Source of the DNA: Myxococcota bacterium
Lineage (GTDB): Bacteria; Myxococcota; XYA12-FULL-58-9; JALHOP01
Length of the DNA: 37,818 nt
Direction: 5' to 3'
NCBI GenBank assembly: GCA_041288095.1
Contig: JBGGMJ010000190.1
Location: 1-37,818 of the forward strand
The notes under the pieces were generated by a model. The model was not told the origin of the DNA and made no database searches. It was given only the letters and a program-made list of their open reading frames with translations. This document shows, one piece after another, positions 2,593 through 37,745 of this stretch (position 1 is the stretch's first letter; each line of letters opens with the position of its first letter). Position numbers and translations under genes: made by a program.

Positions 2593-2985
2593 TCAACCCG
2601 GCAAGAATTCGCTGTACGACACGCGCGCAAGCTCTCGTGGGAGCTCGGCGTGCCGCGTCACCGCTTCGCACAAGACGATGAGCTTTTGGCGCAGGCCCGG
2701 TCGCTTCTCGACGAGCTCGCCGATGCGCGTGGCGAGCGGGTGCGCGACGGCGGTCTTGCTGGTGGCGACCACCAGCACTGGGGCGTCGAGGTTCACCTTG
2801 CTCTTCGGGTCGCGCAGGTCGGCGAATGCCCAGCGCCTATCGGTGGCGACCTGACGCAGCGCCGCGTTGGTCTGCTCGGCGGACGCTCCGGTGAAACCCA
2901 AGATCGCCACAGCTGACATGCCGCCCAGATCTTCGATCAGGCGGGCGGTCGGCGAAACCAGGTCGAGCTCGATGAGCTGCGTCAT
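2593..2985 (-). CDS. Hypothetical 130-aa protein, possibly a degenerate stand-alone AAA+/P-loop domain
   Basis: ATG overlaps the upstream TGA (ATGA, 2982-2985). Element order AVAILGFTGAS / PVLVV / KLIVLCE / ELPRELAR parallels an AAA core. Confidence 0.7.
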   Translation of the reverse strand: MTQLIELDLVSPTARLIEDLGGMSAVAILGFTGASAEQTNAALRQVATDRRWAFADLRDPKSKVNLDAPVLVVATSKTAVAHPLATRIGELVEKRPGLRQKLIVLCEAVTRHAELPRELARVSYSEFLPG

Positions 2986-4577
2986 CCGCCTAGTTGGTAC
3001 ACGCGCGAGGCGGTCGGTGTCACCATGATCGCGACGAGCTGGCCCCGGCGCTGGACGATGCGGGCGCGGCCGGCGACGTAGCTCGAGCTGCCGACATGTT
3101 CCCAGCGGCCGGACAGGCTGTTCAGGTCGAGCTGGAAGACCTCTTTGCTGGGCTTACCGTCGGCGTCGAAGCCGCCGACATAAGTGATCTTCTCCTCGGA
3201 GAGAAACACCTGGCCCATGCCCACTGCCTTGGGTAGCGCGGGCAGCGTGTACCATTTCTCGCCCTGCGCGGTGTCGCACAGGTAGAGCTTGCCGTCGCGC
3301 GCGTTGCCCGGTCCGACGACGAAGACCCGGCGGTCGCTGGCCACCGAAGCGCCGGTCGTGTCCTCGGGCGGGGCGCTGCGCTCGATCCACTTCTGATGCT
3401 GGAGGCGGCGGAAGGCGCGCTCGACGATCGGCATGCGGAAGTCATCGCCCTTCTTCTCTTCGGCGAGCTTGGTCACACCGTCGGTCACGTAGAGGTTGCG
3501 ATCGACGATGGCGATGACCGGCCAAGCCGCGGGCTTCGCCATCTCGGTACCATAGCGCCACTGGTCGGGGGCGAAACCGGTGTGCGCGGCGTTGCTCAAG
3601 GGATACGTGAAGACGGCTGCGCTCGTCTTGCCGTCGGTGTAAGCGCCGCCGTACAGCCGCACCTCGTCGTCGATCACGGCCATGGACACGCCGTTCGGCG
3701 GGAGCTTGTCGGGCGTCGCGATCTCGCGGAAGCACGCGCGTCCGTTGACGCTGTCTTCGATCCACAGGCGCGTCTGGCCGCCTTCGGTGCGCTGGCTCGT
3801 GAGCAGGATGATGCGGTCACGCCACACCGCGACTGAGCACAAGTCGTCGGCGAGACCGGTCGGCGGGCCGGGCGCTTCAGTCGCCTTGAGGCGCGGCGCG
3901 CAGAGGTTACGGAGCAGGCTCGAGAGAGGCTGCGCGCCGGTGCTGCCGGCGCCGAAGTTGAACAAGCCGCCGAGAAACGACTTCTCCACGACCTGGGGCG
4001 TCTGCGCGGTGCGTAAGAGCAGATCGACGACGGACACAGCCTCCTTGGCGAAGGGGCCTTCCTCGACGACATCGCTGCCGCTCATCAGCGTGGCGTCGCG
4101 GTCTTTGACGTAGAGCGTGGCCGGCTGCGGGCGATTTCCGCTATAGAAGACAGAAAGCCACTTGTCGAGCGCCGCGCTGCGCATCTCTTCTTGCTTCCAG
4201 GAGGGGTAGCGCTGGGTGCCCATGTCCGAGAAGGCGGAGGTCGCCTCCCTCAGGTAATCCTGAGTCACGCGGTCGCGTGCGACCGGAGGGAAGACCCAGG
4301 TCTCGCTGGCTCGCGAGCCTCTGCCGACGACGATGGGAAAGAGGTTGTCACCGGCGGCGATCGCGAACACCGTATCGTTGTTGCGGCGACCCATGGCGAG
4401 CCGCTCGGCGGGGCCGGCCGAGACCGCGTCGCACAATGGTCCGATGATCTTCTTGCGGATGGGCTGCAAGAGCTCGTGCGCGTCGCCAGGGGCCGCGGAG
4501 CGCAGCGTATCGACGCTGCGGCGCAGGGACGGGGCTTCGAAGATCGGAAATGGATGAGCGTTGATCATTGTGGTCAC
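2982..4577 (-). CDS. Kelch-repeat beta-propeller protein with an unknown ~230-aa N-terminal domain
   Basis: Kelch-like blades VRLYGG..VFTY..W, LYVTDG, VFVVGPG..W..LP and ITYVGGF..VFQLD..W. GTG start overlaps the giant gene's TGA (GTGA, 4574-4577); alternative ATG at 4568. Confidence 0.8.
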   Translation of the reverse strand: MTTMINAHPFPIFEAPSLRRSVDTLRSAAPGDAHELLQPIRKKIIGPLCDAVSAGPAERLAMGRRNNDTVFAIAAGDNLFPIVVGRGSRASETWVFPPVARDRVTQDYLREATSAFSDMGTQRYPSWKQEEMRSAALDKWLSVFYSGNRPQPATLYVKDRDATLMSGSDVVEEGPFAKEAVSVVDLLLRTAQTPQVVEKSFLGGLFNFGAGSTGAQPLSSLLRNLCAPRLKATEAPGPPTGLADDLCSVAVWRDRIILLTSQRTEGGQTRLWIEDSVNGRACFREIATPDKLPPNGVSMAVIDDEVRLYGGAYTDGKTSAAVFTYPLSNAAHTGFAPDQWRYGTEMAKPAAWPVIAIVDRNLYVTDGVTKLAEEKKGDDFRMPIVERAFRRLQHQKWIERSAPPEDTTGASVASDRRVFVVGPGNARDGKLYLCDTAQGEKWYTLPALPKAVGMGQVFLSEEKITYVGGFDADGKPSKEVFQLDLNSLSGRWEHVGSSSYVAGRARIVQRRGQLVAIMVTPTASRVYQLGG

Positions 4578-7500
4578 TTACCCGGCGACTGGTTGGAGCG
4601 TTCCCAGCAGCGTAGGGCGACGTTCGCGAACTGGTGGACGAATTGCGCGAGGTTGCGCGCGTACAGCGAGTTGTCACCGAACTGCAGTACGCCTTTGCAC
4701 TCGGCGCCGATGCCCGCGGCGACGACGCTGTAACCCTTGGCGACTGCTTTCTGCAGAGTGCTGTGCGCGCCCGGCAGACCTTGGCCGTCGCCGAACGAAA
4801 CGATCTGACCGATGTCGGCTTCGATCATGTCGAGCAGCGCCGCGCCTTCGGCGATGCCGCGCTCGTCGTCGGTGGCGTCGCCTTCGCAGCGGATCTGATG
4901 GAGCAGGTGCGCCTTGAGCTCCTCGTTCCATTCCTGGTCGAAGCCGGCGTGTAGACGCACGCGATCCGAGTAGCCGATGACCGCGATCTTGATGTTTTGA
5001 TCGACCGCCTTGAGCGCATCGCCGTAGGCAATCAGCGCCTCGATGTTGGCGCGCGCCTTGTCGCTGTCGCCCATGCTGGACGACTCGTCGATGGCGAGCA
5101 CCACTTGTGCGCGGATCTCGTCGCTGCCCTTGTTCTTCTTGAAGATGTTCAAGACCGGCATCTTTTGCGCGAGGCCCGACACGTAGAGCGGGATCTGATT
5201 TTCGTCGAGCAGTGGACCGGAGGTCTGCTTGCGCAGGCGCTCCATGCCGCCGGCGCGTGGCAGCGACATGGACACGGCGTCGCGCAGGCGCGAAGCGGTG
5301 CCGTCGCGCTGATGCTTCGCCCAGAGCTCGGCGACTTTTGCCCGGCAAGCGCGGTAGCTCGCGGTCGACGTCGCCTTCTGTTGGGCGAGCTCGAGCTGCT
5401 TGCACACGCCGTCGTAAATGGCGCGCGTGGCGAGCTGATCGACGTCGCGCGCGTCGCCGGTCGAGCCCAAGACTTCGTTCGGCTCGTTGGTGGTCGGGAG
5501 TGCCGCCTCGAGGCGCAGCGATGACGCCATGGGGCCGGGCGAGCCAGCCGCCGACAACGGGGTGTCGAGGATGGCCGTGCCGATGCCCGCGCCCTTCGCT
5601 TCGACGCGTCCGCGGAAGCGGCCTTGGTTGCTGACGAGGCACTTCGTGAGGAGGCTCGCCGCGCCGTCGACCGCGCCGCGGAAGGAGGTCACGTGCATGC
5701 CGAAATCGCCGGCGACCGACTTCAGGTTCTTGGCCTCGCTGAAGCCGAGCATGGCGACGCCGACGCCGTTGGCACGGGCTTGATCGATGAGGGCGCGGAT
5801 CTCGCCGGCGTTGTTCACCTGCGCGTCCGTCATGATGAGGATGAGCTTGTCGTTCGACTTCGATGTGAACTGGCCGAGCGCGGTGTTGATCGCTGGGATG
5901 ATGATGGTGCCGCCGTTGGCGTTGCCGCACACACGGTAGGTCGCGTCCGCCGAGTCCGGCGTCAGCGGCTGGCTCATCGGTTTGTGAACCCAGACCTGGG
6001 CGCCTTCGATGTTGGTGCCGGGGGCATAGCTGCCGACGCCGATGTTGTCGCCGAGGCCCAAGACCGAGCAGCTGCCTTCGCTGCCCAGCAAGGCGCCCAT
6101 GACCATGGCCACGACCGCTTGCTCGTGACGAATGACCTCGCCCTGGGTCGAGCCGGATTGATCGACGACGACCACGACTTCGCAGGGATACTTGCGCAGC
6201 ACCGCGCGCAGGTTGTCGACGAGCCCCTGGTTCTCGGCGCAGAAGCGCTCGAACGCGTTTTTCGGGCGAGTCTCGTCGGGGGAGGCACCCACCAGGCGCT
6301 GGGCGGCGAGGGCGGCCTGCATCTCGTCGACCGTGTTCTGCACCGCGACGTCGCTGAGCTCGATGACCTCGATCTTGCCGCGCCCGTTTGTCGGACCATC
6401 GCCGACCTTGTTCTGCGGCGCGTTGATTTCTCCCGTCGGCGTCTTCGGGTCCGCGAGGGGGGCATTGCCTTCGGGCTCGTCCGCGGGTGGTGCATCGACC
6501 GCTTGGACACCGGTGCCGTCGCCGGCCCCGCCTGCGATGCCTTCCCCGCCGGAGCCGACACCAACGGTTCCGCCGGCGGTGCCCGTGTCGGACTTGCCGC
6601 CGAACAGGGCGGTCAGCCCGCTGCTCGGGGGGCTCGTCTGGTCCTGCGACGGTGCCCAGGTGGCCTGGTGCACGCGACCCATGTTCGTCGTTGCAGCCTG
6701 CGAGGCCTCCGACTTGGGCGCCGAGACCTCGAGGCCGCGAATGTTGCCGCTGAAGTACTTCGACGCGACACTCGCGACTTGCTTGGCGACCGCGCGCGCC
6801 TCGACGTCGAGCAAGCCGAGCATCGCTTCGACCACCGTTTGGGCCTGCTGCAGGGTCGCGACGCTGGGTTTGTTCTTGCCGAGCTTCGCCAAGTACTCGC
6901 GCAGCTTGAGAGCCATGCCCTCGAAGTGATTGCTCGATGCCGCGTCGCCGGCGTAGCGCTCGGCCTCGGCACGGAGCTCGCGGAGCTTGTCGGATGCCTT
7001 CTCGAGCTCGCTACCGAGGCCGGGCACGCTCTGGGCCTTCTGGACCGCGTCCATGAGCGACACGACCGCGGCCGCGACGCGTCCGGAGTAGGGGCCCTTG
7101 GTCATGGCGTTGGCGGCGCCGGCGGCATCGAGGAGCTCGTTGATCAGCGCTGCCGGCGAACCCGAGGTCGAGTCGAACGCGGCGAGCGCGCGCTTGGAAG
7201 CGCCGAGGCGGGCGATCGCCGCTTCGCGGTCCTTCAGATACGGCGCGACGCCGCTGGTGAAATGGTCGGCGACGCGAGCAGCGTCGTCGTTGAAGAGCTC
7301 ACCGTGGAGGGCGCGTAGATGCGATTCGATGTCGCGCCCGGCACTGGCGAGCGGACCCATCAGGTCGGCGACGAACGGCGCGACGCGGTCCGCCGCGACG
7401 TCGATGGCGGCGACCAGTTTGTGGCGTTCGAGCGACGACAGACAAACTTCGTCCACGGCCTCGGCGAGCTTGAGATAGTCGGCGAGCTGGCGGTCGGTCA

Positions 7501-10500
7501 CCTTCGTCTGGATGTCGAGGCGGCCGCCGAGCTCGGTGAACGCGGCGGCGACTTCGGCGAGACAACGCTCCGCGGTAGCGGTCGGCACGTATTGCGCGAG
7601 CTCGTCGCGGAACCCGGCCGCTTTGGTGGACAGCTCGCGGGCGCCCGCTGCTTCGTTGCCGGTAAGGCCCTCGCCGAGCTGGGCGAGACGCGCCGCCATG
7701 CTGTGGAACAAAGCGCGGCGCGAATACGCGGTGATCGCCGCCGAGTCGTTGCCGAGCGCGTCGATGATCTCGGCGAGCCTCGCCAGAGCCATGGCATCTT
7801 GGCCACCGGCGCTCGAGTCTCCCGACTTCGGCGCGAGCTCTTGAACCTCATCGAGCTGCGAACGCGCGCTCATGGCGAAGCGCGTGACCTCGCGCGCCAG
7901 GACGGTGCTGTCGAAGACGAGCTTCAGGTCGCGCCCGGCTTCGACGATCTTCGCGAGCTTGGCGGTCGCGGCCGCCGGGAAGAGCTCCGAAGGCTCGACC
8001 ACCGCCAGCACGCGGGTCAACGCTTCGAGGGCGGCGTCGAGGCTGGTCTGCAGGGCAGGGATGTCGGCGTCGCTGCCGCGGGCGAGCGCGTCGAGGGCAT
8101 CTTTCGCCGTGTTGAAGGTCGCGGAAGCCCGCTGCCAGGTGCTGCCCTGCGTCGCCTTCTCCAAGGCCGCGAGCAAGGTGCGTGCTTCGGTGTGCGATCG
8201 CGACAGGCGGTCGCCCGCGGCGACTGTCCGCTCGAGCACATCGTCCATGGCGCGGCGCACCTGGTCGCGCGTCGAATCGCTCTCGCGCCGGGTAACGTGC
8301 TGCGGCGGCTTCAGACCGACGGTCGACAAATCGAGGAGGCGTAGCTCGGTGTCACGCACCGTCATCACTTGGGCTGGCGCGGGTGAAACGATGCGCGACA
8401 GCGTGGTCGGCCCCATGCCCTTTTCACGGTCGCTCGCGAAGGCCTCGCCGTCGAGGGCGTTGCGGATGCGCTCACCGTGGCTACCGCCGCGACCTGTCCC
8501 CGAGGACAGCATCTCGAATATGGCGTCGACGCCGGCGTCCTGCAGGGTTACCGACTTGGCGGTCGTCTGGGCGCCGAGGAAGGCGCGCTTGAGCTCGATC
8601 ATCTCCTGCTCGAGCTGTTGTAGCTGCGCGTCCGGCTTAGCGGACTTGGCCGCCTCTTGATAGCGTTGCAGAGCCTGGTCGAGCGCCGTGATGCAGGCCC
8701 GAGCCGACTTGTCGCGCAGTGACTGCTGGCGGATGACCTGCGCGGCGCGCATGGTCGCTTCGATGACGTTGGCGAAGCCGTAGGCGACACCCGACTTCGC
8801 GGCGAACCTCGAGGAAAGATCGTCCGCGACTTGGGAGAACGCGGCGACTCGCATCAACAGGTTGCGCGCCGTGGCATCCGGACCCAAGCGCGCGATGGAA
8901 GCTTGCAGCGCGCCGGAGATCTCGACGTTTTCGCGGGCCGCCTGATGGAGCGCGGCGTAGCGCGACGAAGCGAGACCCAGCGTGTCGGAGCTCGCGAGCA
9001 CGTCTTCGATGGCGCCGCAGCTGGCGATATGGCTCTCGAGCGGGCTGATGTCCGGCAGGCCGGCCATGGTGTGGTTGACGCGCTCTTCGATCTTGGCGAG
9101 CGCTTCTTCGACGAGCTTGCAGGCTTCGTCACGGTTCGGCGCTTCGTGCTGGCGCATGTAGAGCGGCATGCCGCCGTCGTCGATCATGCGCCCGAAGCCG
9201 AAGCGGCGGCGCAACCCGTCGCCCCAGGCGCGTGCTTCACCTTCCGCGGTGCGCAAGGCGGTGCGCGCGTCTTCGATGGCCCGCGTCGTGGTCGTGTCCG
9301 CGGCATCTCCGAGCTGAGTCGCGAGGAGTTGGAGATCCTTGCCGAGGGCAATGGCCGCCATCGCGTTGCGGCTGGCGCTGCGCTCGACGGCGCTCTCCAC
9401 GCGTTGCCGATAGGCGGTCTCGTATTCGGCGGCCTTCTTCTTCTCGAGCTCGGCCAAGACCTTGCGCTTGGTCTCGGCGATGCGCGACCCGCTCTCTTGT
9501 TCGAGGCGGCCCAGAGCGTCTTCGTATCTGGCTTGAGCAGCGCTCGACCGCGCCTGCTGAGTCGGCTGCGCAAGGCCGGTGTCACCCAAGGCCAAGTCGT
9601 AATCGGCAAAGAACTTGTCGACCGGCGGGGCCTTGCGATCCATCGTCTCTTGCGCGAGCTCGGCGAACAGTTCGGCGCGCGCTGCTTCGACCTTGTCGCG
9701 CTCTTCGGCTTTAGCTTGCTGCGTTGCCTCGGCCTCGAGCTCGGCCTTGCTGGCCCGGTGGGGTGCGTCGATTTTGAGCGGGCCCGACGGCAGCTGGAGG
9801 AACTCGGCGCGCGAGAGATCGCTCGCGTTCTTCTTCACGCGGCCGAGCGTCGCCAACATCTCCTTGGCGGTGCGGAGGGTCTTCACCTGGCCGAGGTGAC
9901 CCAGGAGCTCGTCGACCACTTCACGGGTGCCACGCTGAGCGTCGGCGACGGCGCGGCGGAGATCAGCGGACTGTTCGGCGATGCGGATGCCTTCGAGCGC
10001 CGAGCCGGCGGCGCGCAGTGCCGACAGCAAGCCGGAGACTTCGTCGCGGGTTGCGCCGCGGTCGTCGTGTGCCTCGCGCAAAGCATCGAGCGCGTTGTGC
10101 AGCTCGGCGAGGTGGCCGCGCAGCTGGTGGTGGTTCTTGAACAGCGGCGTGCCGGTGACCCAGTCCCAGCGCTCGATGACCTTCTCGTAGCGCTCCTGCA
10201 GGACGTTGTCCGTGCCACCGCCGTGCTGGCGGTAGGCCTCGAGGGCGTCCTCGACGGAGTCGCGGACCTGTCGGATCGTGCCTTCGGCGGCGCTTGCTTC
10301 GAAGCGCTCGGTGACCGACGCGAGCTCGCGGCGGGCGGCATCCGCGGCTTCGGAACCGAAACCGGCGCAGAGCGCGAAGGCGTCAGCGTAGCGGCTGATG
10401 ATCTCGCAGCGGTGCTCGAGGTCCCAGAGGCGCGCGCCGCGCATGAACTCGAGCACGTCGCCTTCGAGCGGCTTGCTCGCAAAGCCGCTCTCGTCGATGG

Positions 10501-13500
10501 CCTTGATCAGGCGCTCCGCCGCGTTCTTGGTCTTGACGGTGATCTTGGTAACGCCGGGCTCGCTGTCGAGGAGCTTGCTGCACGCGCGCTCGATCTCGGC
10601 GGGCAACAGACCGCCGGTGGGGAGGCGCGCCACGAGCATGCGTAGGTCGGCCTCGGTGCCGCCATCGATCAAGCGGGTCACGGCTTCCTTGGTCGATTTG
10701 AGGACCGCGGCGGTGAGCACGGCGGCGACGCCGTCGTAGTCTTTCTTGAGTGTTGCGAGGTGCGGGTTCGCGACGATGTCGACCGCGTTCGAGCTCTGCG
10801 CGGTGAGAATGCCCGACGTGCCGTAGAGCTGCGCCAAGCACGTTGCGACAGCGGCGGCGACGCCGTCGTGCACGGGCAAGCGCTCGACCGGAGCGAGGAC
10901 GTGGCGCACGATGGCGCTGGTGACGATATCTTGCAGGTCGGCGTCGGAGTTCGCCGCGGCGCGTGCGACGTCGCTCGCGAGGAACAGTAGACGTTGTCCG
11001 TCAAAGCGGATGAGCTGCCGGTCCTGCAGGCTGACGCCGGTGATGCTCGCGTCGGCGGCGGCGATCAGGTCGACGAAAGCAGTAGCCATGGCGGAGCCGC
11101 CGGGCACGCCGGCGAGGATGTGGCTGGTCAAGGCGATGAGATCGTGGCGCTGCGTGACGGGCTCGGCGCGGACGCGGGTACAGGCCGCCGCGAGCTCCTG
11201 CGGGAGCGGCGGGTCGCCGGTGGAGGTCTGGAGCACCAAGCGCAAGCGCTTCTGCTGGATCTCGAGCTTGCCGTCGCGAATGCGTTCGACGTTGTCGGTC
11301 CCGGCGACCTCCGACAGGCGCATGAGCAAGTCGCGCGGCAGGCGCGCCGCGTTGCGGATGAGCAGGATCGAGGCTTCGCGCTGGGCTCGCCAAACGAGAC
11401 CTTCGTAGCGCTCGAAGCGACCGTCGTCGTTCTGCACCAAGCCGCCGAAGAGTGACGACTCGGAGAGCTGCTCGTTGCCTTCGATCTCGATGATCTCCGA
11501 CGCCGACAGGCGCGCCATGCTCTGGATGGCGGCGCGGCCGACGAAGGGATCGCCATGGATCTGCAGCGACTCGGCGAACTGCGCCGCCGCGAACTCCTTG
11601 CTCTGGATCTCGTCGAGGCCTTCGACGCGGGGCAAGATGGCTTCGTGCTGCGGCACGCCCTTGCGAATGCCGCGGCTGTCGCGGGGCACCGACCATTCGC
11701 CGAAGCGGACGAAATGTTGAGTCGCCGAGACGTCGGTGCCGGCGGGTGCCGCGATGCCTTCGCAGATGAAGCGTTTGGTGAGGTGCGAGAAGAGCGCGCG
11801 GTCGCTCTCGTTGTCGAAGCGCTCGCCGTAGACGTCGACGATGAGGCGGTGCAGGGTCTCGACTTCGTCGGTGACCGCGCCTTGCGCCGTGAGGTGCTTC
11901 AAGCGGCGTGCGACGGCTTCGGCGTCGCGGTTCAGGAACGAGCCGATGGCGAGGGCAGAGGCAAACTCGCCCTTACGCAAGAGCTCGTTCATGCAGATGT
12001 GGAACCGCGCCAACAGGCGCGCCGAGTCGACGGAGATCTGCGTGCGGTGATGGATGTTCTCGAGCAGCTCGGAGGCGGCGCGGGACAAGACCTCTTGGGT
12101 CGGCGCCTGCACCCGTGTCGACAGCAGCGGAGTCAGCAGGCGGTTTTCGAGCGCCGGCGAGAACTCGTGCGGCGAGCCCGGCTTGCGCAGCATGATCATG
12201 CGGAAGTTGGGATTGGCCTTGATGGTACGGGCCGACCGCGGCAAGTCGATCGATTGCCGGCCGTCACCGAGCGAGTTCAGGCGCTCGAGCTTGGAGCTGG
12301 GGATGGAGCCGCAGCCGCGCAGGACGAGGAGGTGGCCGTTCTGAACCGCCTGGGCGATCTCCTGCATCTCGGGCGTGAAGCCGCCCTTCACCGTCGGATC
12401 GTCGGTGAGGACCAGCTTCTCGATGAGCTGCTCGATGTCGGTGTTCGGAGTGAGGGTGACCACCACGAGGCGCTTGCCGAGCAGACGCGCGTACTCGCGT
12501 AGGGTCTCCATCGACTCGCCGTTGGGATCGTCGGTGAGCGACATCGGCCGGCCGCGGCCCATGACGTCGGCGTCGGCGATGCACGAGAGGTTTTGCACGC
12601 GCGCCGGCGTGAGCGGGAAGCGCTCGTTCGACGGACGCCACGGGGTCTCGGCGCCGAGCGGCACTCGGGTGTTGCCGAAGTAGACGGCGTCGCCTTCTTG
12701 GCGCGGCACGAGTAGGTCGACGGCTTCGCTCGCGGCGTGGCCAAAGGTGCGGGTGATCCGCGCCAGTGCCTCACCCTCGAGGTCACGCGGCATCTTGGAG
12801 AGGAGGGTGAGCTCGGCGGCGCGCATGGCCGACCCGGCGACGCCCGTGGTGCGTCGCTTCTCGATGTAGAGCTCGAGGAACGAGGAGAGGACGCGCGGCG
12901 TGAGCGGTGAAGCGCCCGCGCCCGCTTGCAGGGTGCGCAGATCGTCGAAGAAGGAGACCAGGCGCGCCACTTCCTCCGCCGAGGTCAGGCGATCGCCGAC
13001 GACGATGTTGGCGTTCGCGACCTTCATTGCCTCGACCGACAACGAGCCGGCCGGGACCATGCCGGCGACGCGCGCCGCCGACTGCGGATCCTTGGCTTTG
13101 ACGAGCAGCGCCGAGATGAGCTCGCGCAGCGGCGCGAACTTGTCGCCTTTGAACTGCCACAAAGCGAGTGCGAGGGCGCGCTCTTGTTCCGGCGTGAAGG
13201 CGAAGATTGGCGTCGTGGCGAGCGCGAGCACGAGCGTCTTCTGGAAGTGAGCCTCGTCGCGCTTGCCGGCGCCGACCAGCCCCTTCAAGAACGTCATCAT
13301 GCCCTTGGGCGGATCGACGTCGATGCAGGCGAGCTTCAGGGCATCGCCGAAGGCGTTTCCGGGCCTGCAGATCTGCAGCAAGGCGTCGCGTGCGCTATTG
13401 CGGTCAGCCGCTTCGAAGCTCTGCGGCGAGCGCAGGAGCTCACGGGGCTCCCCGTCGCAGTAGTCGCGCTGAGCGATCTCGTTGAGCTCGTCGAAGCCGC

Positions 13501-16500
13501 GTGGCTCGCGAATGCCGACGATCACCAAGCGGCTGGCTTCGGGATCGGAGAAGCCGTCGGCGCGGATGTCGTCGCCGTTGGTGGTGAAGATCTGGCGGAA
13601 CTCGGGATGCCAGCGATCTTCGGGCGGGCCGCCGCGGCGGCGCAGGGTGCGCGACGGACGCGACGGGATCTTGATCTGCGAGCCTTCGGTGACCGGGTTG
13701 AGCGACTCGCGCGTCTGATTGGGGAGAGTCAGGAGCTCGTCGCCGCAGTACCAGGCGCCGATCTGCGCCGCGATATCGAGCGGCGACTCTTGGAAGCGCA
13801 CCTCGCCCTCGGGCGTGAGCACCGTCGTGCCGAAGATGTTCTCCTCGGACATGTCGGCGTGGTACGCCTGCTCGAGCAGCGGTTGGTTCAAGTGGTGTGC
13901 GAGATAGCGGACGAGCATCGTCTTGCCCGAGCCGGTGATGCCGACGATGGCGAGCGGCTGATCGAGCTCGAGGGCGAGCAGCGCATCCTCGAGGAAGTCG
14001 AGCTGCGCCCCGATGGGCTCGCCGATGCGATCCTTGCTGGGCACCATGGCTTGGTGCACCGGGTTATCGAGCTTGCGGACGGGATAACGCGCGACGCCGA
14101 CCTTGAGGTACTCGACGCCGTCGACGGTGATACGCTCGACGCCATTGGGTCGCGTGAGCTCGTGGACGTCGGAGCCGAAGTGGCGCTTGATGAGTGTCTC
14201 GAAGACGCGCTGCGCGGTGTCCGGCGCCTGGAGCAGGCCGCGAACGAGCCGCATGGTCTCTCGACCCAGCACACGGCGCTGCTCGTTCGGATCGGTGATG
14301 CCGTCACGCTTGATCAGGTGCTCGGCGCGTCGCGCCGCTTTGAGCATGTCGCGCTCGGTGCAGGTGAGCGGCCCGAACGTCTTGCCGAGCTCGCCACGAC
14401 GCTCGTTCCACACCGCTTCGAGGTCGACGAAGAACTTGGCGATGGTGAGGACCGGGTCGAACGACTTGTCGGAGAAAAAGCCACCGGCGCTGGTGCGCCA
14501 CTGGCGTGCTAGGCCGCACTGCGATGCGACGATGTCGGCGCGCTCGTTGACCGGCTTTTCGCGCACCATGACGCGGAACATGCAGTCGTCGATGACGGGC
14601 GGCTGTTCCTTGCGGCCGCGGGTGCCGAGTGGATTCTCCGCGAAGTAGAGAATCGAAGCGCCGATGGAGCGAGGCAACCCGGTGTCGGGGTCGATGACGG
14701 CGCGGCGGTGATCGAGCAGGGACTTCATGCTCATCATCGCTTCGGTGCTGAGGTTGCGCTCGTCGCCGATCCACGCGCCTTCGGTCTCGAGCGTCGCCTT
14801 GATCAGCGGCCCGCTGACCATCTGGAACTGCACGCCCTGCTCGGTCTTCACTGGGCTCAAACCGCCGTAGAGGTCCGACGCTTCGGTGGCCGCCGAGAAA
14901 TTGTAACGCTCCGGCGTCCTGTCCGCGATGGCGGACCAGAGTATGCCGAGCACGGTTTTGCCGGCGGCGGCCTTACCAACGGTGAGCACTGGACGCTCGA
15001 GCTTGTAGGCGAGGGCCAGCGGCAGCAGGGTGTCGGCCATGCTGGGTGTGAGGTCGAAGCCGGTGGTGGCGACGCGTTGGCTCACGTCGGCTTGGCTTAA
15101 GCCCATGACCCGCATCCACACCGGCGGTGTGCCGTCGGCGAACCGCGGAAGCTTGGCGAGCGCCGGGCTCTTGGCCTCGTCGAAGAGCAAGCGAGCCGCG
15201 TGCGCTACCGCTTGGTCAGCTGGCACGTGCGCGGCAAGGAGCGTCGCGGCGCCGGCGAAGTCGCGGGAGCGTTGCAGCTTGAGCAAACCGATCTGGGGGG
15301 CTTCGGCGTGGATCTCGGTGGCGACGCGCTCGATGAGGGCGCGCAGCTCGGGCGAGGCAGCGGCCGGGATGAGGCTGAAAGCGTCGCTCAAGCTCGGTGA
15401 GTCGAAGCGGATCTCGGTTAGCAAGGCGCGCTCGCGCGCCGGGGGTGTGCGCCGCGTCCGGTCCGCTCCAGCGGTCGCCGAGAAGTAGATGCGACTCTCG
15501 GGGTGGACCGGAACGGTCACGGCCTGACCATCTTTCATGATGGTCAGCGAGGTCTTCTCGACGAGCCGTATGAGGGCCTCCTGGCGCTCGAGCGACAGGT
15601 GGTCGATGTGGTCGAAATAGAGGATCTTGCCGTTCAGCAACGCATCGGTGATGACGCCGGGCACGAACTCGACGCTGCCGTCCTTCTTGAAGACTGGGCG
15701 CTCGATGAGGCTCTGCGGATCGACGCCCGGGTGGCAGGTGACGGTGACGAGGTCGCGCCCGAAGCGGCGAGCGAGCTCGTTCACGAGGCTCGTGGAACCC
15801 GCCTGACCGGGAGCGGTGAACATGACCGGCTCGCCGGCGAGATGCGCGGCTTCGGCCTGCGCCATGGCTTCGACCTGCGCGCCGATGGGCGTCCAGCCGC
15901 CGTCTGGGGTCGCCGCCGTGAGGGGCTGCGGGGCGGGATGACCGTCGTTCGTGATCACCGCGCGGAGCGCCGCCTGTGAGCCTTCGCTCGCGAGGCGCGT
16001 ACCGTAGATGCCCCAGATTGCGTTCGAGATGTCCTGCGGTTGCGGCGTCGGCAGGTTCTTCAGACGCCGCGCGACGCGCTCGAGCATCGGGTAAGCGAGC
16101 GGAAACCCGCGGCCGAAGTCGATCTGCTGCTCGGGCTGGTCGCTCGTTTGCCCAGCCTTGATGGTCTCGTGTTTGTCGGCGAGCTTGCTCGCCAGTGCAC
16201 GGCTGATGCCGACGCGCTCGCTGAGCAGGCGTACGTGATCGTCGCGCGTATAAGCGCTCACCTCGGTCAGAGCGCAGACGGAGGTCAGCTCCGCGCTGCA
16301 ACGCGCGCGGTTGCTGGTCATCAGTACGAGGCGAAAATCGGGGTGCACCGGCACGATCTTGCCGGAGACTGGGTGGTGGAACTCCGCCACGCCCTTGGCG
16401 AGACCGGAGAGGATCGCGAGCACGTCTTTTTCCGCCTGCTCGAGACACTCGGCGACGAATACACCGCCGTTCATGATGCACTCGGTGAGCGGCCCGTGGT

Positions 16501-17047
16501 GGACACGCAAGCGTCCCTGGGCGTCAGGGCGCAGGGCGCCGGCGAGCGAGTCGAGCGAGGTAATGCGCGAGATGCGTTGGTGACGGTAGGGAGTGCCGGC
16601 GACCTCGAAGAACCAGCGGGCCGTGGCGCCGCCATCGACGCCTTCGGGCAGCGAGACCAGCGCCGGGACGCCCGACTTGAGGACGTCCGCGAGTGAGCGG
16701 ATGACCTCTTCCTGGGGCCGCAGGATAGTCAGCTCGGCGGCTTTGTCCGACGGAACCGGCAGCGTCAACGTGCCGACACGTAGCTCGCCGTTGCCGTGCT
16801 CGACCTTCTGGGCCGCTTTCAGCGCGCTCTCGAGGCCCTCTTGGGTGACTCGGGTCTCACGTGCCTCGTTGACGGCACGATGGGTGCGGTCAAGGACGTC
16901 AGCGACGACGTTTTGCACCTTCTGTTGGCGTGCGCCCTCGGGTTGGTCCGGGGCCTTCTGCTGGTCGCGCTCCGGGGTCTGGGCGTTGTGATCGCCTGCC
17001 GTCGGGCGCTGCCATGGTCGAAATCCTGCTCCAGCGGTATCGGTCAT
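4574..17047 (-). CDS. Giant midasin (Rea1/Mdn1)-like protein: six AAA+ modules, helical linker, two vWA/MIDAS domains (4157 aa)
   Basis: Uninterrupted 12.5-kb ORF. Walker A GKAAAGKT (14954-14977) and GITGSGKT (13919-13942); Walker B WIGDE and WYCGDE. Four further degenerate modules, including VHPDFRL, VHPESRI, ANPNFRM and SPALENR signatures. MIDAS motifs DQSGS (6149-6163) and DESSS (5075-5089). Confidence 0.88.
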   Translation of the reverse strand: MTDTAGAGFRPWQRPTAGDHNAQTPERDQQKAPDQPEGARQQKVQNVVADVLDRTHRAVNEARETRVTQEGLESALKAAQKVEHGNGELRVGTLTLPVPSDKAAELTILRPQEEVIRSLADVLKSGVPALVSLPEGVDGGATARWFFEVAGTPYRHQRISRITSLDSLAGALRPDAQGRLRVHHGPLTECIMNGGVFVAECLEQAEKDVLAILSGLAKGVAEFHHPVSGKIVPVHPDFRLVLMTSNRARCSAELTSVCALTEVSAYTRDDHVRLLSERVGISRALASKLADKHETIKAGQTSDQPEQQIDFGRGFPLAYPMLERVARRLKNLPTPQPQDISNAIWGIYGTRLASEGSQAALRAVITNDGHPAPQPLTAATPDGGWTPIGAQVEAMAQAEAAHLAGEPVMFTAPGQAGSTSLVNELARRFGRDLVTVTCHPGVDPQSLIERPVFKKDGSVEFVPGVITDALLNGKILYFDHIDHLSLERQEALIRLVEKTSLTIMKDGQAVTVPVHPESRIYFSATAGADRTRRTPPARERALLTEIRFDSPSLSDAFSLIPAAASPELRALIERVATEIHAEAPQIGLLKLQRSRDFAGAATLLAAHVPADQAVAHAARLLFDEAKSPALAKLPRFADGTPPVWMRVMGLSQADVSQRVATTGFDLTPSMADTLLPLALAYKLERPVLTVGKAAAGKTVLGILWSAIADRTPERYNFSAATEASDLYGGLSPVKTEQGVQFQMVSGPLIKATLETEGAWIGDERNLSTEAMMSMKSLLDHRRAVIDPDTGLPRSIGASILYFAENPLGTRGRKEQPPVIDDCMFRVMVREKPVNERADIVASQCGLARQWRTSAGGFFSDKSFDPVLTIAKFFVDLEAVWNERRGELGKTFGPLTCTERDMLKAARRAEHLIKRDGITDPNEQRRVLGRETMRLVRGLLQAPDTAQRVFETLIKRHFGSDVHELTRPNGVERITVDGVEYLKVGVARYPVRKLDNPVHQAMVPSKDRIGEPIGAQLDFLEDALLALELDQPLAIVGITGSGKTMLVRYLAHHLNQPLLEQAYHADMSEENIFGTTVLTPEGEVRFQESPLDIAAQIGAWYCGDELLTLPNQTRESLNPVTEGSQIKIPSRPSRTLRRRGGPPEDRWHPEFRQIFTTNGDDIRADGFSDPEASRLVIVGIREPRGFDELNEIAQRDYCDGEPRELLRSPQSFEAADRNSARDALLQICRPGNAFGDALKLACIDVDPPKGMMTFLKGLVGAGKRDEAHFQKTLVLALATTPIFAFTPEQERALALALWQFKGDKFAPLRELISALLVKAKDPQSAARVAGMVPAGSLSVEAMKVANANIVVGDRLTSAEEVARLVSFFDDLRTLQAGAGASPLTPRVLSSFLELYIEKRRTTGVAGSAMRAAELTLLSKMPRDLEGEALARITRTFGHAASEAVDLLVPRQEGDAVYFGNTRVPLGAETPWRPSNERFPLTPARVQNLSCIADADVMGRGRPMSLTDDPNGESMETLREYARLLGKRLVVVTLTPNTDIEQLIEKLVLTDDPTVKGGFTPEMQEIAQAVQNGHLLVLRGCGSIPSSKLERLNSLGDGRQSIDLPRSARTIKANPNFRMIMLRKPGSPHEFSPALENRLLTPLLSTRVQAPTQEVLSRAASELLENIHHRTQISVDSARLLARFHICMNELLRKGEFASALAIGSFLNRDAEAVARRLKHLTAQGAVTDEVETLHRLIVDVYGERFDNESDRALFSHLTKRFICEGIAAPAGTDVSATQHFVRFGEWSVPRDSRGIRKGVPQHEAILPRVEGLDEIQSKEFAAAQFAESLQIHGDPFVGRAAIQSMARLSASEIIEIEGNEQLSESSLFGGLVQNDDGRFERYEGLVWRAQREASILLIRNAARLPRDLLMRLSEVAGTDNVERIRDGKLEIQQKRLRLVLQTSTGDPPLPQELAAACTRVRAEPVTQRHDLIALTSHILAGVPGGSAMATAFVDLIAAADASITGVSLQDRQLIRFDGQRLLFLASDVARAAANSDADLQDIVTSAIVRHVLAPVERLPVHDGVAAAVATCLAQLYGTSGILTAQSSNAVDIVANPHLATLKKDYDGVAAVLTAAVLKSTKEAVTRLIDGGTEADLRMLVARLPTGGLLPAEIERACSKLLDSEPGVTKITVKTKNAAERLIKAIDESGFASKPLEGDVLEFMRGARLWDLEHRCEIISRYADAFALCAGFGSEAADAARRELASVTERFEASAAEGTIRQVRDSVEDALEAYRQHGGGTDNVLQERYEKVIERWDWVTGTPLFKNHHQLRGHLAELHNALDALREAHDDRGATRDEVSGLLSALRAAGSALEGIRIAEQSADLRRAVADAQRGTREVVDELLGHLGQVKTLRTAKEMLATLGRVKKNASDLSRAEFLQLPSGPLKIDAPHRASKAELEAEATQQAKAEERDKVEAARAELFAELAQETMDRKAPPVDKFFADYDLALGDTGLAQPTQQARSSAAQARYEDALGRLEQESGSRIAETKRKVLAELEKKKAAEYETAYRQRVESAVERSASRNAMAAIALGKDLQLLATQLGDAADTTTTRAIEDARTALRTAEGEARAWGDGLRRRFGFGRMIDDGGMPLYMRQHEAPNRDEACKLVEEALAKIEERVNHTMAGLPDISPLESHIASCGAIEDVLASSDTLGLASSRYAALHQAARENVEISGALQASIARLGPDATARNLLMRVAAFSQVADDLSSRFAAKSGVAYGFANVIEATMRAAQVIRQQSLRDKSARACITALDQALQRYQEAAKSAKPDAQLQQLEQEMIELKRAFLGAQTTAKSVTLQDAGVDAIFEMLSSGTGRGGSHGERIRNALDGEAFASDREKGMGPTTLSRIVSPAPAQVMTVRDTELRLLDLSTVGLKPPQHVTRRESDSTRDQVRRAMDDVLERTVAAGDRLSRSHTEARTLLAALEKATQGSTWQRASATFNTAKDALDALARGSDADIPALQTSLDAALEALTRVLAVVEPSELFPAAATAKLAKIVEAGRDLKLVFDSTVLAREVTRFAMSARSQLDEVQELAPKSGDSSAGGQDAMALARLAEIIDALGNDSAAITAYSRRALFHSMAARLAQLGEGLTGNEAAGARELSTKAAGFRDELAQYVPTATAERCLAEVAAAFTELGGRLDIQTKVTDRQLADYLKLAEAVDEVCLSSLERHKLVAAIDVAADRVAPFVADLMGPLASAGRDIESHLRALHGELFNDDAARVADHFTSGVAPYLKDREAAIARLGASKRALAAFDSTSGSPAALINELLDAAGAANAMTKGPYSGRVAAAVVSLMDAVQKAQSVPGLGSELEKASDKLRELRAEAERYAGDAASSNHFEGMALKLREYLAKLGKNKPSVATLQQAQTVVEAMLGLLDVEARAVAKQVASVASKYFSGNIRGLEVSAPKSEASQAATTNMGRVHQATWAPSQDQTSPPSSGLTALFGGKSDTGTAGGTVGVGSGGEGIAGGAGDGTGVQAVDAPPADEPEGNAPLADPKTPTGEINAPQNKVGDGPTNGRGKIEVIELSDVAVQNTVDEMQAALAAQRLVGASPDETRPKNAFERFCAENQGLVDNLRAVLRKYPCEVVVVVDQSGSTQGEVIRHEQAVVAMVMGALLGSEGSCSVLGLGDNIGVGSYAPGTNIEGAQVWVHKPMSQPLTPDSADATYRVCGNANGGTIIIPAINTALGQFTSKSNDKLILIMTDAQVNNAGEIRALIDQARANGVGVAMLGFSEAKNLKSVAGDFGMHVTSFRGAVDGAASLLTKCLVSNQGRFRGRVEAKGAGIGTAILDTPLSAAGSPGPMASSLRLEAALPTTNEPNEVLGSTGDARDVDQLATRAIYDGVCKQLELAQQKATSTASYRACRAKVAELWAKHQRDGTASRLRDAVSMSLPRAGGMERLRKQTSGPLLDENQIPLYVSGLAQKMPVLNIFKKNKGSDEIRAQVVLAIDESSSMGDSDKARANIEALIAYGDALKAVDQNIKIAVIGYSDRVRLHAGFDQEWNEELKAHLLHQIRCEGDATDDERGIAEGAALLDMIEADIGQIVSFGDGQGLPGAHSTLQKAVAKGYSVVAAGIGAECKGVLQFGDNSLYARNLAQFVHQFANVALRCWERSNQSPGK

Positions 17048-17268
17048 GGCTCGTGTTCGTCGTGGGTGATGATGTCCGATTGGCTGCGTGGGAGCGCCGC
17101 CTAAGCATCGGAGTTATCGTTCAGTCCGCCCCAGGGTTGCGCCGTGCGACATGACAGACCCCCCGCGATCGGGTGTCAGAGTGGCACCGGGAAGATCGGG
17201 GTCAGAAGCACCCCGACGACGTGTCGGCCCGATAACAGGAATCGAGACCAACGAAATTGGGGTTAGTC

Positions 17269-17922
17269 ATGGCCATTCAGCCCGCGCACACCTTCCATCA
17301 CGCTTCGCAGGCCCACGCCGCCCTCATGGCCGCCGGCAGCCAGGTCGCCGAGCTCGGAGCACGGGTCACCGGTGCCCTGAAGGCGTCCGCTGCAACCCTC
17401 GACACCTACGGGCCACGGGGCGCGACTCCATCGTTCGCGCATGACCTTCGCACTCATGCAGGCGCGCTGGAGCAGTCGCTCGCGGGCATCGCTGCCCTCG
17501 TTGCGATGGGCGACAAATACTACGCGCACGTGGCATTGCATGGTGGCGAGACCGCGTTCATCGCCAACATGACTGAGACGCTACCTTATCTCGAGTCGAC
17601 GGCGGCCGAGTTGGAGCGAGCCATCCCCTTCGCGGAAGACCAACAACGGACCGCGGGGGTCGTCGCTCAGGTGAGCCACGTTGTCCAGGCAGGGGACGCC
17701 GTCGCCGCCACCATTGACGACGTGAATGCAAACCTCGCGAGGACCATCGAGCACTTAGCGAGCCGGGCGGCCAGCACTCCCGAGGCGCCGAGTCGCGTCG
17801 ACGCGACCGCTGCACTCCGCGCCGCCAACGCCACGAGCCGGGCGGACCTCGAGCGTTACAGCGCGCAGCTCGTAGCCGATCGCCAGCGCGGTCGAAACAC
17901 GAACCCCGCGGCCAAGGGCTGA
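17269..17922 (+). CDS. Hypothetical Ala-rich alpha-helical protein
   Basis: ORF fills the gap between the giant gene and carB with plausible codon usage. ATG 17269 preferred over TTG 17257. No recognisable motif. Confidence 0.7.
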   Translation: MAIQPAHTFHHASQAHAALMAAGSQVAELGARVTGALKASAATLDTYGPRGATPSFAHDLRTHAGALEQSLAGIAALVAMGDKYYAHVALHGGETAFIANMTETLPYLESTAAELERAIPFAEDQQRTAGVVAQVSHVVQAGDAVAATIDDVNANLARTIEHLASRAASTPEAPSRVDATAALRAANATSRADLERYSAQLVADRQRGRNTNPAAKG

Positions 17923-27587: not shown

Positions 27588-27685
27588 CCAAGGACTATAG
27601 CCCGGGCGCCGAGGTTGCGCTCACAACCCCGGGTTGAGGGCGCGTGGGGGCCCTGGCATGCTCTCAGTGGCCGTCCAAAAGGCAC

Positions 27686-37675: not shown

Positions 37676-37710
37676 CCCCGAGGTTGTGGCCCAAACTCGC
37701 GCGGCGAGCA

Positions 37711-37745
37711 AAAGGCCCCCCGCGGCTCCAGCCGCTCAGGCCTTT
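37711..37745 (-). terminator. Hairpin, possible terminator after the upstream partial gene
   Basis: AAAGGCC..GCGGCT-CC-AGCCGC..GGCCTTT inverted repeat with only a short T run on the minus strand. Confidence 0.35.

Follow-up and report, generated by a model that had tools for sequence, protein, structure and literature searches.

Midasin (Rea1/Mdn1) is a six-AAA chain that ends in a MIDAS vWA domain; in eukaryotes it remodels pre-60S particles, from which it removes factors with a UBL domain. According to passages of one study, the six-AAA chain arose from MoxR at an early stage of the evolution of eukaryotes (PMC3495828), and the accessible sections of another place prokaryotic AAA and vWA in different proteins (PMC10743472). 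Excerpts from work on midasin report that AAA2–AAA5 bind or hydrolyse ATP and are needed, and that AAA2, AAA4 and AAA6 carry large helical insertions in helix 2 (PMC6920918). For NorQD, an excerpt describes a vWA finger that enters the pore and a MIDAS that grips the client, with the MIDAS loop of midasin as a parallel (PMC13036017). RNF213 is presented, in part of its structural description, as a two-site ATP switch in which AAA3 and AAA4 alone are catalytically complete (PMC7311170). Within its accessible text, a paper on huge proteins names midasin only as eukaryotic (PMC11573180), and the available part of a giant-protein study names AAA_5 only in a figure legend (bioRxiv 2023.11.21.568195). 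In openly accessible full texts, no description of a bacterial chain with six AAA modules and a vWA domain was found. Here we analyse such a chain, a protein of 4157 amino acids (aa) encoded in a stretch of 37,818 nucleotides (the window; contig JBGGMJ010000190.1 of the Myxococcota bacterium assembly GCA_041288095.1), which we call the giant.

The giant has six AAA folds, two complete and conserved ATP sites, two intact MIDAS and a finger segment before the second vWA domain, and it co-occurs with a Kelch partner. A first-pass annotation of the window had proposed a single-chain bacterial six-AAA plus MIDAS protein from the midasin branch of the MoxR clade, and this proved genuine. Its further description as the full midasin architecture did not hold, since the protein has neither an acidic tether, nor the large helix-2 insertions of AAA2, AAA4 and AAA6, nor four active sites, and carries a second vWA domain. 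Judged from sequence comparisons, the protein seems not to be a midasin, and to be instead a separately assembled relative built to the same plan; our verdict is that it works like midasin from outside the midasin family. The parts of the chain are as follows.

4574..17047, reverse strand: the giant gene, with six AAA+ modules, helical linker, tether and two vWA domains; 4157 aa
16799..17047, reverse strand: N-terminal extension, aa 1–83, low complexity, with a conserved [FM][RK]P[WH] motif
15932..16798, reverse strand: AAA1, aa 84–372, with a beta hairpin in front and no Walker A Lys; predicted inactive
15128..15931, reverse strand: AAA2, aa 373–640, with a degenerate Walker A (GQ[SA]G[AS]T) and no Arg finger from AAA3; predicted inactive
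14132..15127, reverse strand: AAA3, aa 641–972, complete site of K697, D762–E763, N805, R1173 (the AAA4 Arg finger) and R899
12704..14131, reverse strand: AAA4, aa 973–1448, complete site of K1042, D1103–E1104, N1157, R1636 (the AAA5 Arg finger) and R1385
13013..13459, reverse strand: helical insertion of AAA4, about 150 aa, between the large and small subdomains
11732..12703, reverse strand: AAA5, aa 1449–1772, no Walker motifs; the SPALENR Arg finger is retained for the AAA4 site
10763..11731, reverse strand: AAA6, aa 1773–2095, no Walker motifs
6758..10762, reverse strand: linker, aa 2096–3430, rich in Ala, Leu, Glu and Arg, helical by composition
6278..6757, reverse strand: tether, aa 3431–3590, rich in Gly, Pro and Ser, poorly conserved, mildly acidic
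5603..6250, reverse strand: vWA1, aa 3600–3815, complete MIDAS of D3629, S3631, S3633, T3714 and D3741, without a finger
5138..5260, reverse strand: finger segment before vWA2, aa 3930–3970, the counterpart of the midasin MIDAS loop and, by its position, of the NorD finger
4598..5113, reverse strand: vWA2, aa 3979–4150, CobT/midasin type, complete MIDAS of D3987, S3989, S3991, T4059 and D4087

The six AAA modules lie within the boundaries that the first-pass annotation had drawn, as alignment of 11 homologues showed, and AlphaFold2 gave an AAA fold for each. The Walker A Lys, Walker B Asp-Glu and sensor-1 Asn of AAA3 and AAA4 are invariant in all 12 full-length members of the family described below. 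So are R899 and R1385, and the Arg fingers by which AAA4 and AAA5 would complete the two sites. AAA1, AAA2, AAA5 and AAA6 are without Walker motifs, so that the Walker A Lys and Walker B Asp-Glu are restricted to AAA3 and AAA4 (12/12). When the modules were aligned with those of midasin and NorQ, the helix-2 insert and the pre-sensor-1 hairpin of clade 7 were present. The helix-2 elements are short hairpins only: AAA2 measures 257–283 aa in 12 members, against 352–463 aa in 29 midasins. The insertion within AAA4 is variable, and is missing from the most divergent member.

The ring was folded as two separate halves. For aa 80–1200 (AAA1–4), AlphaFold2 gave a mean predicted local distance difference test (pLDDT) of 77 and a predicted template modelling score (pTM) of 0.68; for aa 965–2110 (AAA4–6) these were 70 and 0.40, with the folds present and their arrangement unreliable. 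The AAA1–4 model is arc-shaped and matches S. pombe Mdn1 best on superposition (Z 23.5, root-mean-square deviation 6.9, 900 aligned residues, 17% identity), with dynein (Z 21.9) and Rea1 (Z 21.6) close behind, and Foldseek returned query-normalised scores (TMq) of 0.50–0.63. The register of the superposition is ambiguous, as the model falls on residues 856–2115 of Mdn1 and 1019–2297 of Rea1 (about AAA3–6) and also on 287–1583 of Rea1 (about AAA1–4). A predicted complex of AAA3–4 with vWA2 scored 0.00 and weighs neither way.

The motifs quoted in the first-pass annotation are located at aa 89 (LRVGTLTLP), 981 (LKVGVARYP), 1455 (VYFGNTRVP) and 1780 (VRFGEWSVP), with SPALENR at 1630, SGPLLDENQ at 3943 and RAQVVLAIDESSSM at 3979. 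The first four had been read as a recurring beta motif in front of the modules. By eye they do resemble a motif before AAA1, AAA2, AAA3, AAA5 and AAA6 of fungal midasins, but a profile test was weak and non-discriminating, with family medians of −1.1 to 3.2 bits against −1.3 to 0.0 for shuffled sequences. Four of 72 segments reached at least 8 bits, and no shuffle exceeded 5.7. This profile was not counted as support, because AAA2 equalled AAA5 in score despite having no copy of the motif.

The two C-terminal MIDAS vWA domains noticed earlier are both complete, and their five MIDAS ligands are kept in 12/12 members (one Thr as Ser). The finger segment precedes vWA2 alone. Over 197 columns vWA2 aligned to the MIDAS vWA of midasin with a probability of 97.6, and it was grouped with CobT_C-type vWA domains (Atlas 0.96). 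Its profile matched two kinds of entry in the PDB, the Chaetomium midasin MIDAS structures 6qt8/6qta and 8ql1, which is titled NDE1 and whose sequence is by eye a midasin-type MIDAS. The first-pass annotation had likened the segment before this MIDAS to that of midasin; the resemblance is not specific to midasin, as the vWA2 profile scored 87 against midasin, 86 against other bacterial-type giants and 84 against the stand-alone vWA proteins of two-module Myxococcota operons, compared with 39 against NorD-type domains. No homology between the linker and the midasin stem was detectable by profile–profile comparison with shallow profiles (first 750 residues against stem, middle and top: probability 0.17, E 0.36). 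Of the Gly/Pro/acidic tether claimed earlier, the Gly/Pro part stood, in a Gly/Pro/Ser-rich segment, while its acidity is mild, at most 18 Asp or Glu per 100 aa in this protein; the 12 members range from 18 to 25, against 44–52 in three midasins.

The gene is one uninterrupted frame and a single copy in a genome of 5.85 Mb (66% GC, 90% complete; the giant lies on contig C190). Its GC content at third codon positions (0.87) matches that of its neighbours, and a Pfam scan of the flanking genes found ordinary bacterial ones: carB, an M20 peptidase and a glutathione peroxidase. The adjoining carB is 94–97% identical to that of two genomes of the same genus, with gene order shared, in agreement with the earlier view that this is a bacterial gene and not a contaminant. 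Full-length open frames of 4123–4209 aa occur in six other genomes, and together with the synteny in the genus these exclude contamination or mis-assembly. Pfam recognised AAA_5 (E 5e-45), VWA at aa 3624–3775 and VWA_2 at aa 3982–4088, and an NCBIfam scan gave no match near any cut-off. A hydropathy scan of 16 members revealed no convincing membrane segment; because no 19-residue window exceeded 1.66, the protein is probably soluble.

The giant founds a small family in uncultured Myxococcota-group genomes. A word-indexed search with residues 1–2100 returned 16 proteins of 1708 candidates, comprising 10 family members with 39–91% identity across the whole region (eight of 4131–4208 aa and two partial) and six midasin-type proteins. 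Similar searches for longer relatives gave three proteins for AAA3–4 (983–2805 aa) and two for vWA2 (523–2000 aa). Among the best 150 matches of a profile search of 1.84 billion representatives, 14 rows belonged to the family, 133 were collinear midasin-like proteins and three were multi-module giants. The most divergent member (P0023, 3880 aa) still has six modules and two vWA domains. Eight genome loci were found, all metagenome-assembled and titled Myxococcota, Myxococcales, Bdellovibrionales or Deltaproteobacteria, and one additional locus came from metagenomes. In 401 genomes of the phylum there were 11 matches, nine of them true members and two weak single-module matches. Beyond the host genome itself, carriers were 2/3 others of its genus, 5/20 of family f12, 1/11 of f23 and 0/172 of f17. 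One member (L021:10001–22563) is split into frames of 2402 and 1826 aa within an otherwise intact operon, either as a pseudogene or through an assembly error. A viral origin was considered and rejected: none of 33 pattern matches in viral contigs was confirmed as a family member, and phage and plasmid collections gave single-module matches only (2 and 36 records).

Two genes follow the giant, and the gene coupling claimed earlier is real in the form of 4-base overlaps.

2982..4577, reverse strand: Kelch partner, an N-terminal domain of about 225 aa and a Kelch beta-propeller, 531 aa; 4-base overlap with the giant
2593..2985, reverse strand: alpha/beta partner of 130 aa, of no known family; 4-base overlap with the Kelch gene

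A Kelch profile built from eight loci, to which at least two carriers (G083 and G132) contributed no row, matched 9/401 genomes, exactly the nine that have the giant. The Kelch and small genes lie downstream of the giant in 8/9 loci having downstream DNA, and in G083 the Kelch gene is on a different contig, where it comes after a ClpB-like gene. The 130-aa protein is weakly similar to small proteins of the two-module AAA/vWA operons described below (E 8e-4, probability 25%). The idea that it is a dead AAA domain found no support: the best profile score had E 0.015 (probability 2.9%), Pfam gave no match and the PDB none that was meaningful. The idea of the Kelch N-terminal domain as a UBL-like MIDAS ligand was also dropped, as none of its acidic residues is invariant.

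At five loci outside the genus a DcrB-like gene comes first, followed in four by a ClpB-like gene, with further degenerate AAA genes after. In the window's genus the operon has neither the DcrB-like nor the ClpB-like gene, and tblastn found no DcrB-like gene of that kind in the window's genome. Long, conserved operon tails in f12 (L020:12928–22908, L038:16039–19687, L025:5013–12001 and L036:281–5493) contain DcrB-like, ClpB-like, 990-aa coiled-coil, 240-aa, 635-aa and radical-SAM-like genes, the last assigned from a motif seen by eye. Several of these genes have degenerate ClpB-type AAA segments, and G091 has a fusion of ClpB-D2 with Kelch. A patchy distribution and an operon rich in AAA genes speak for a specialised system, in assembly or in conflict, and against housekeeping. 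In the neighbourhoods no ribosome-related gene was seen conserved beside the giant, and no VMAP, iSTAND or FtsH gene was seen at its operon.

How the giant relates to midasin was addressed module by module. In the PDB, its best sequence matches were midasins (E 1e-35), followed by NorQ/CbbQ (E 7e-10 and weaker), and with the AAA1–4 profile midasin was again at the top (E 6e-71). For module comparisons, sequences were cut from 12 family members, 29 midasins (three named fungal ones and 26 of the 133 midasin-like matches, the other 107 being left out), three other giants, four two-module proteins and 15 single-module ATPases. With B for family and M for midasin modules, profile–profile scores of odd modules with odd ones were B3–M5 175, B3–M3 157, B5–M3 146 and B1–M1 118. 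Other bacterial modules came closer to midasin (two-module T1–M3 276; even modules of the giants to M2/M3 310), with the family at most 175. A module tree (94 rows, 250 columns, LG+C20 with posterior mean site frequencies (PMSF), quick search; five family members and six midasins) placed each family module and each midasin module in its own clade, with little resolved between clades. B2 and B4 grouped with CbbQ/NorQ/CobS proteins at a support of 93 in the Shimodaira–Hasegawa-like approximate likelihood ratio test (SH-aLRT).

Constrained topologies were compared by approximately unbiased (AU) tests after removal of two long outgroup rows, which left 92, with short tree searches under LG+F+G4 and LG+C10 PMSF; the orthology tree was also used as a guide. 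Under both models the tests rejected orthology across the six modules (p 0.0005 and 0.006 with LG+F+G4, 0.0004 and 0.003 with LG+C10 PMSF), as were both shifted registers (p 0.001–0.011). The family modules as one clade were not rejected (p 0.17–0.23). The first-pass annotation had left two readings side by side, a midasin relative or a convergent MoxR–vWA fusion; the tests favour the second without proving it. It had also looked to the per-module phylogeny to show modules grouping with MoxR or with Mdn1, and here the answer was divided, with the full orthology rejected and AAA3 and AAA4 still free to pair with their midasin counterparts.

Bacterial relatives with fewer modules were found in the same phylum. 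Three other genomes encode proteins of 1277–1782 aa that end in two intact midasin-type modules (L089:8100–12143, L090:7853–11686 and L091:3798–9146), and these modules are nearer those of midasin than the modules of the six-module family are. In L089 and L090 the two-module gene is followed by a gene of 143–153 aa and then by a separate vWA gene. We regard such proteins as a candidate 'primordial pair' for six-module rings. In the host genome itself, contig C130 (L092:12–10718) carries a vWA gene (1591 aa), a 133-aa gene and a two-module AAA gene (1847 aa) in the layout of the two-module operons; this AAA protein is a diverged version whose second module is dead. Three giants of another kind (P0026, P0104 and P0121; 4005, 6708 and 4471 aa) consist of three repeats of an AAA pair and also carry HExxH segments and a CobT-type vWA. 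The AAA pairs of P0121 are near-identical, which marks a recent triplication. In two giants the module tree groups odd modules with odd and even with even, which implies that fusion by repeated duplication occurs in bacteria. With one-, two- and six-module forms found there, the parts for a midasin-like machine exist in bacteria, and separate fusion is favoured because the two-module and triplicated relatives are nearer midasin than the giant's family is.

We lean, with somewhat better than even confidence, towards a cytoplasmic single-chain AAA+ ring machine, fused separately from eukaryotic midasin, that acts as an ATP-driven remodeller by docking of vWA2. Midasin-type bacterial AAA modules, related to CobS and NorQ, would have been fused to each other and to a CobT-type vWA co-chaperone. 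The six modules would close into a ring in which four serve as structural subunits, and ATP turnover at AAA3 and AAA4 would open and close it and drive both docking and release of vWA2. By analogy with the argument made for RNF213, such a machine would not be processive but would act as a switch, or as a remodeller with a short stroke. By way of the long linker and the floppy tether, vWA2 could dock its finger in the ring, in the manner of NorD and the midasin MIDAS, and a client gripped by one or both MIDAS sites would be twisted or pulled off its complex. The Kelch and 130-aa proteins may be a dedicated adaptor and cofactor, or the client.

Several observations weigh against this reading. 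Global superposition of the AAA4–6 model was poor (TMq about 0.2), and because that model has no reliable arrangement, ring closure is inferred and not shown. The N-terminal domain of the Kelch protein has no invariant acidic residue that could serve as MIDAS ligand. As to separate fusion, odd family modules favour odd midasin modules, as shared pair-wise ancestry would give, and pairing with the midasin counterpart was not rejected for AAA3 (p 0.57), for AAA4 (p 0.48) or for both jointly (p 0.21–0.24). The orthology rejection therefore rests on the four degenerate long-branch modules. Nor was a clade of family plus midasin modules rejected (p 0.14–0.20), whereas a family clade and a midasin clade at once were (p 0.012–0.042). 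Given the short searches and the dead long-branch modules, we treat common six-module ancestry as the less likely possibility.

On that view the giant's family would be a bacterial line that survives as sister to the six-module ancestor shared by midasin and dynein: the chain of six modules and vWA arose once, in bacteria, so that a ring with its own MIDAS was invented there, midasin and through it dynein share the descent, four modules decayed in the giant and long branches hide the orthology. Midasin is indeed the best sequence match for the ring and vWA2 and the best structural match, the parts come in the same order, each module is an old separate clade, and odd/even parity was not rejected (p 0.07–0.15). 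The Walker A types of the two intact modules also match those of midasin AAA3 and AAA4 (GPASSGKT with GPTSAGKT, GxTGTGKT with GETGxGKT), but bacterial proteins of the two-module and triplicated kinds have these types as well. Of the six modules, only B1 (M1) and B4 (M4) match midasin best at the corresponding position, and B4 is nearer CobS-like single proteins (154) than M4 (129). The hairpin is absent before AAA2 and AAA3 in the family and before AAA4 in midasin, and the linker shows no detectable homology; with all-six orthology and both shifted registers rejected, we consider this descent rather unlikely. Far less probable still is that a predatory bacterium acquired a eukaryotic midasin gene that was then eroded and rearranged, losing the helix-2 insertions and the acidic tract and duplicating the vWA. 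A rare, patchy family (9/401 genomes) would suit such an uptake, and in the free tree B3 stands, unsupported, beside midasin AAA5; yet no family module falls inside any midasin module clade (M1–M6 each monophyletic, SH-aLRT 94–99), identity to fungal midasins is only 22–27%, and closer relatives of midasin modules already exist in bacteria.

Two further proposals concern what the machine is for. It may be a fused metal-insertion or enzyme-activating chaperone for a metabolic enzyme, like NorQ–NorD, CbbQ–CbbO and CobS–CobT. The nearest single-module relatives (CbbQ/NorQ/CobS), the CobT_C-type vWA2 and the grouping of B2 and B4 agree with this, but the neighbourhoods share no conserved candidate for the target enzyme apart from the radical-SAM-like gene in two loci, and such a job needs neither four dead sites nor a 1300-aa linker; we hold it improbable. 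A role in predation or conflict, compatible with the remodelling mechanism preferred above, is a tentative possibility, on the doubtful side. Here the operon would be a cargo or assembly system whose ring triggers release or assembly of an effector complex, either as an exported effector machine or as an intracellular anti-invader device like the MoxR–vWA ternary systems, which in the sections available have propellers, inactive NTPases and radical SAM genes (PMC7159879). Presence is patchy even among the other genomes of the genus, and disordered N-termini occur on the giant and several operon proteins. DcrB/DUF1795 proteins may act as secretion-effector adaptors, and the DcrB-like, ClpB-like and degenerate AAA genes of the five loci outside the genus fit the proposal, but the first two are not in the operon of the window's genus. 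Pfam scans of the operon found no nuclease, toxin or other effector domain. A link to type III secretion was set aside: export-gate genes occur in 5/5 genomes tested and are non-discriminating because one of these is without the giant. G091 and G095 have six and seven such (FHIPEP) genes, against one or two in the window's genus.

Other observations concern neighbouring and related genes. A 221-aa gene of no Pfam family (window 17257–17922, forward strand) diverges from the giant's start, and a relative 40% identical lies at another place in a genome of the same genus. Pfam scans of the window identified a DUF1554 protein (26286–27587, reverse strand), a Ser/Thr kinase that also carries an adenylate/guanylate cyclase domain (27644–29926, forward strand) and a 1231-aa NHL/teneurin-NHL plus DUF4215 protein (34016–37711, reverse strand). 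At L035:4307–6212, in the same genus, two extra genes are inserted after carB; judged from their N-termini they are a putative RloB-type plus ABC-ATPase defence pair. The nearest single-module relatives of AAA4 are plasmid CobS-like ATPases beside RecT/YqaJ recombinase genes (L083, L084, L085 and L086), two of these loci also having DUF3150 and vWA genes. Two genomes of 0.5 and 0.3 Mb (G076 and G108), listed as 91% and 87% complete and placed in the phylum, carry a NorQ-like ATPase.

A bacterial family with six AAA modules fused to MIDAS contradicts the exclusivity of this plan to eukaryotes, as drawn from the available passages of PMC3495828 and PMC10743472. Combined with the phylum's two-module relatives, it opens the origin of midasin and dynein to tests that use real intermediates. 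With just two live sites, side by side, it offers a natural minimal model of how concatenated rings such as midasin, RNF213 and dynein specialise. Its two MIDAS in tandem and its obligate Kelch partner suggest a bacterial remodelling system that has yet to be described. If the descent from a common ancestor with midasin were true, every stage would survive in Myxococcota-group genomes: a single module with a separate vWA, a module pair with a separate vWA, and six modules with the vWA fused to them.

Compared with known systems, the giant shares with midasin six concatenated clade-7 AAA+ modules, a long linker, a flexible tether and a C-terminal MIDAS vWA with its preceding loop (vWA2 of the giant). 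It differs in having AAA3 and AAA4 active where midasin has AAA2–AAA5, in an insertion inside AAA4 in place of the large helix-2 insertions of AAA2/4/6, in the lack of an Asp/Glu-rich tract, in its two vWA domains and a linker of undetected homology, and in its bacterial operon with a Kelch partner, all-six orthology being rejected. NorQ–NorD, CbbQ–CbbO and CobS–CobT belong to the same AAA clade and have a CobT-type vWA with a finger, and by analogy remodelling with the finger in the pore is probable in the giant too. These systems, however, are homo-hexamers of subunits of about 270–330 aa with a separate vWA protein, whereas the giant holds six diverged modules (four dead) and two vWA domains in one chain. 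The ternary MoxR–vWA conflict systems, in the available part of their description, come in VMAP, iSTAND, FtsH and beta-propeller types; they likewise combine a MoxR-clade ATPase, a vWA and conserved extras including a propeller, and are patchy, but their MoxR is single-module and the propeller is fused to the vWA, where the giant has separate Kelch and 130-aa proteins (PMC7159879).

Dynein is similar in ring geometry (the TMq values above for AAA1–4) and in a helical insertion at AAA4, but identity is 10–14% and the giant has vWA domains. AAA1, the main ATPase of dynein, is dead in the giant. From AAA4 dynein extends a coiled-coil stalk with a microtubule-binding domain; the giant's insertion there consists of short helices, varies between members and is missing from one of them, so that no such stalk is supported. 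P0026, P0104 and P0121 have six midasin-type modules and a C-terminal CobT-type vWA in one chain, but they are built of module-pair repeats with mostly intact Walker A and HExxH segments and are about 25% identical to midasin, while the giant's family has six anciently diverged modules, two vWA domains, no HExxH and its own operon. RNF213 (mysterin) was not among the PDB sequence matches or the top structure matches, and a distant relation is still possible. It has no counterpart in the giant for its RING/E3 module (Pfam scans), the C-terminus here being two vWA domains. With RNF213 the giant nevertheless shares six AAA units per chain of which only AAA3 and AAA4 are complete, an arrangement proposed in the consulted portion of that work to act as a ring switch (PMC7311170).

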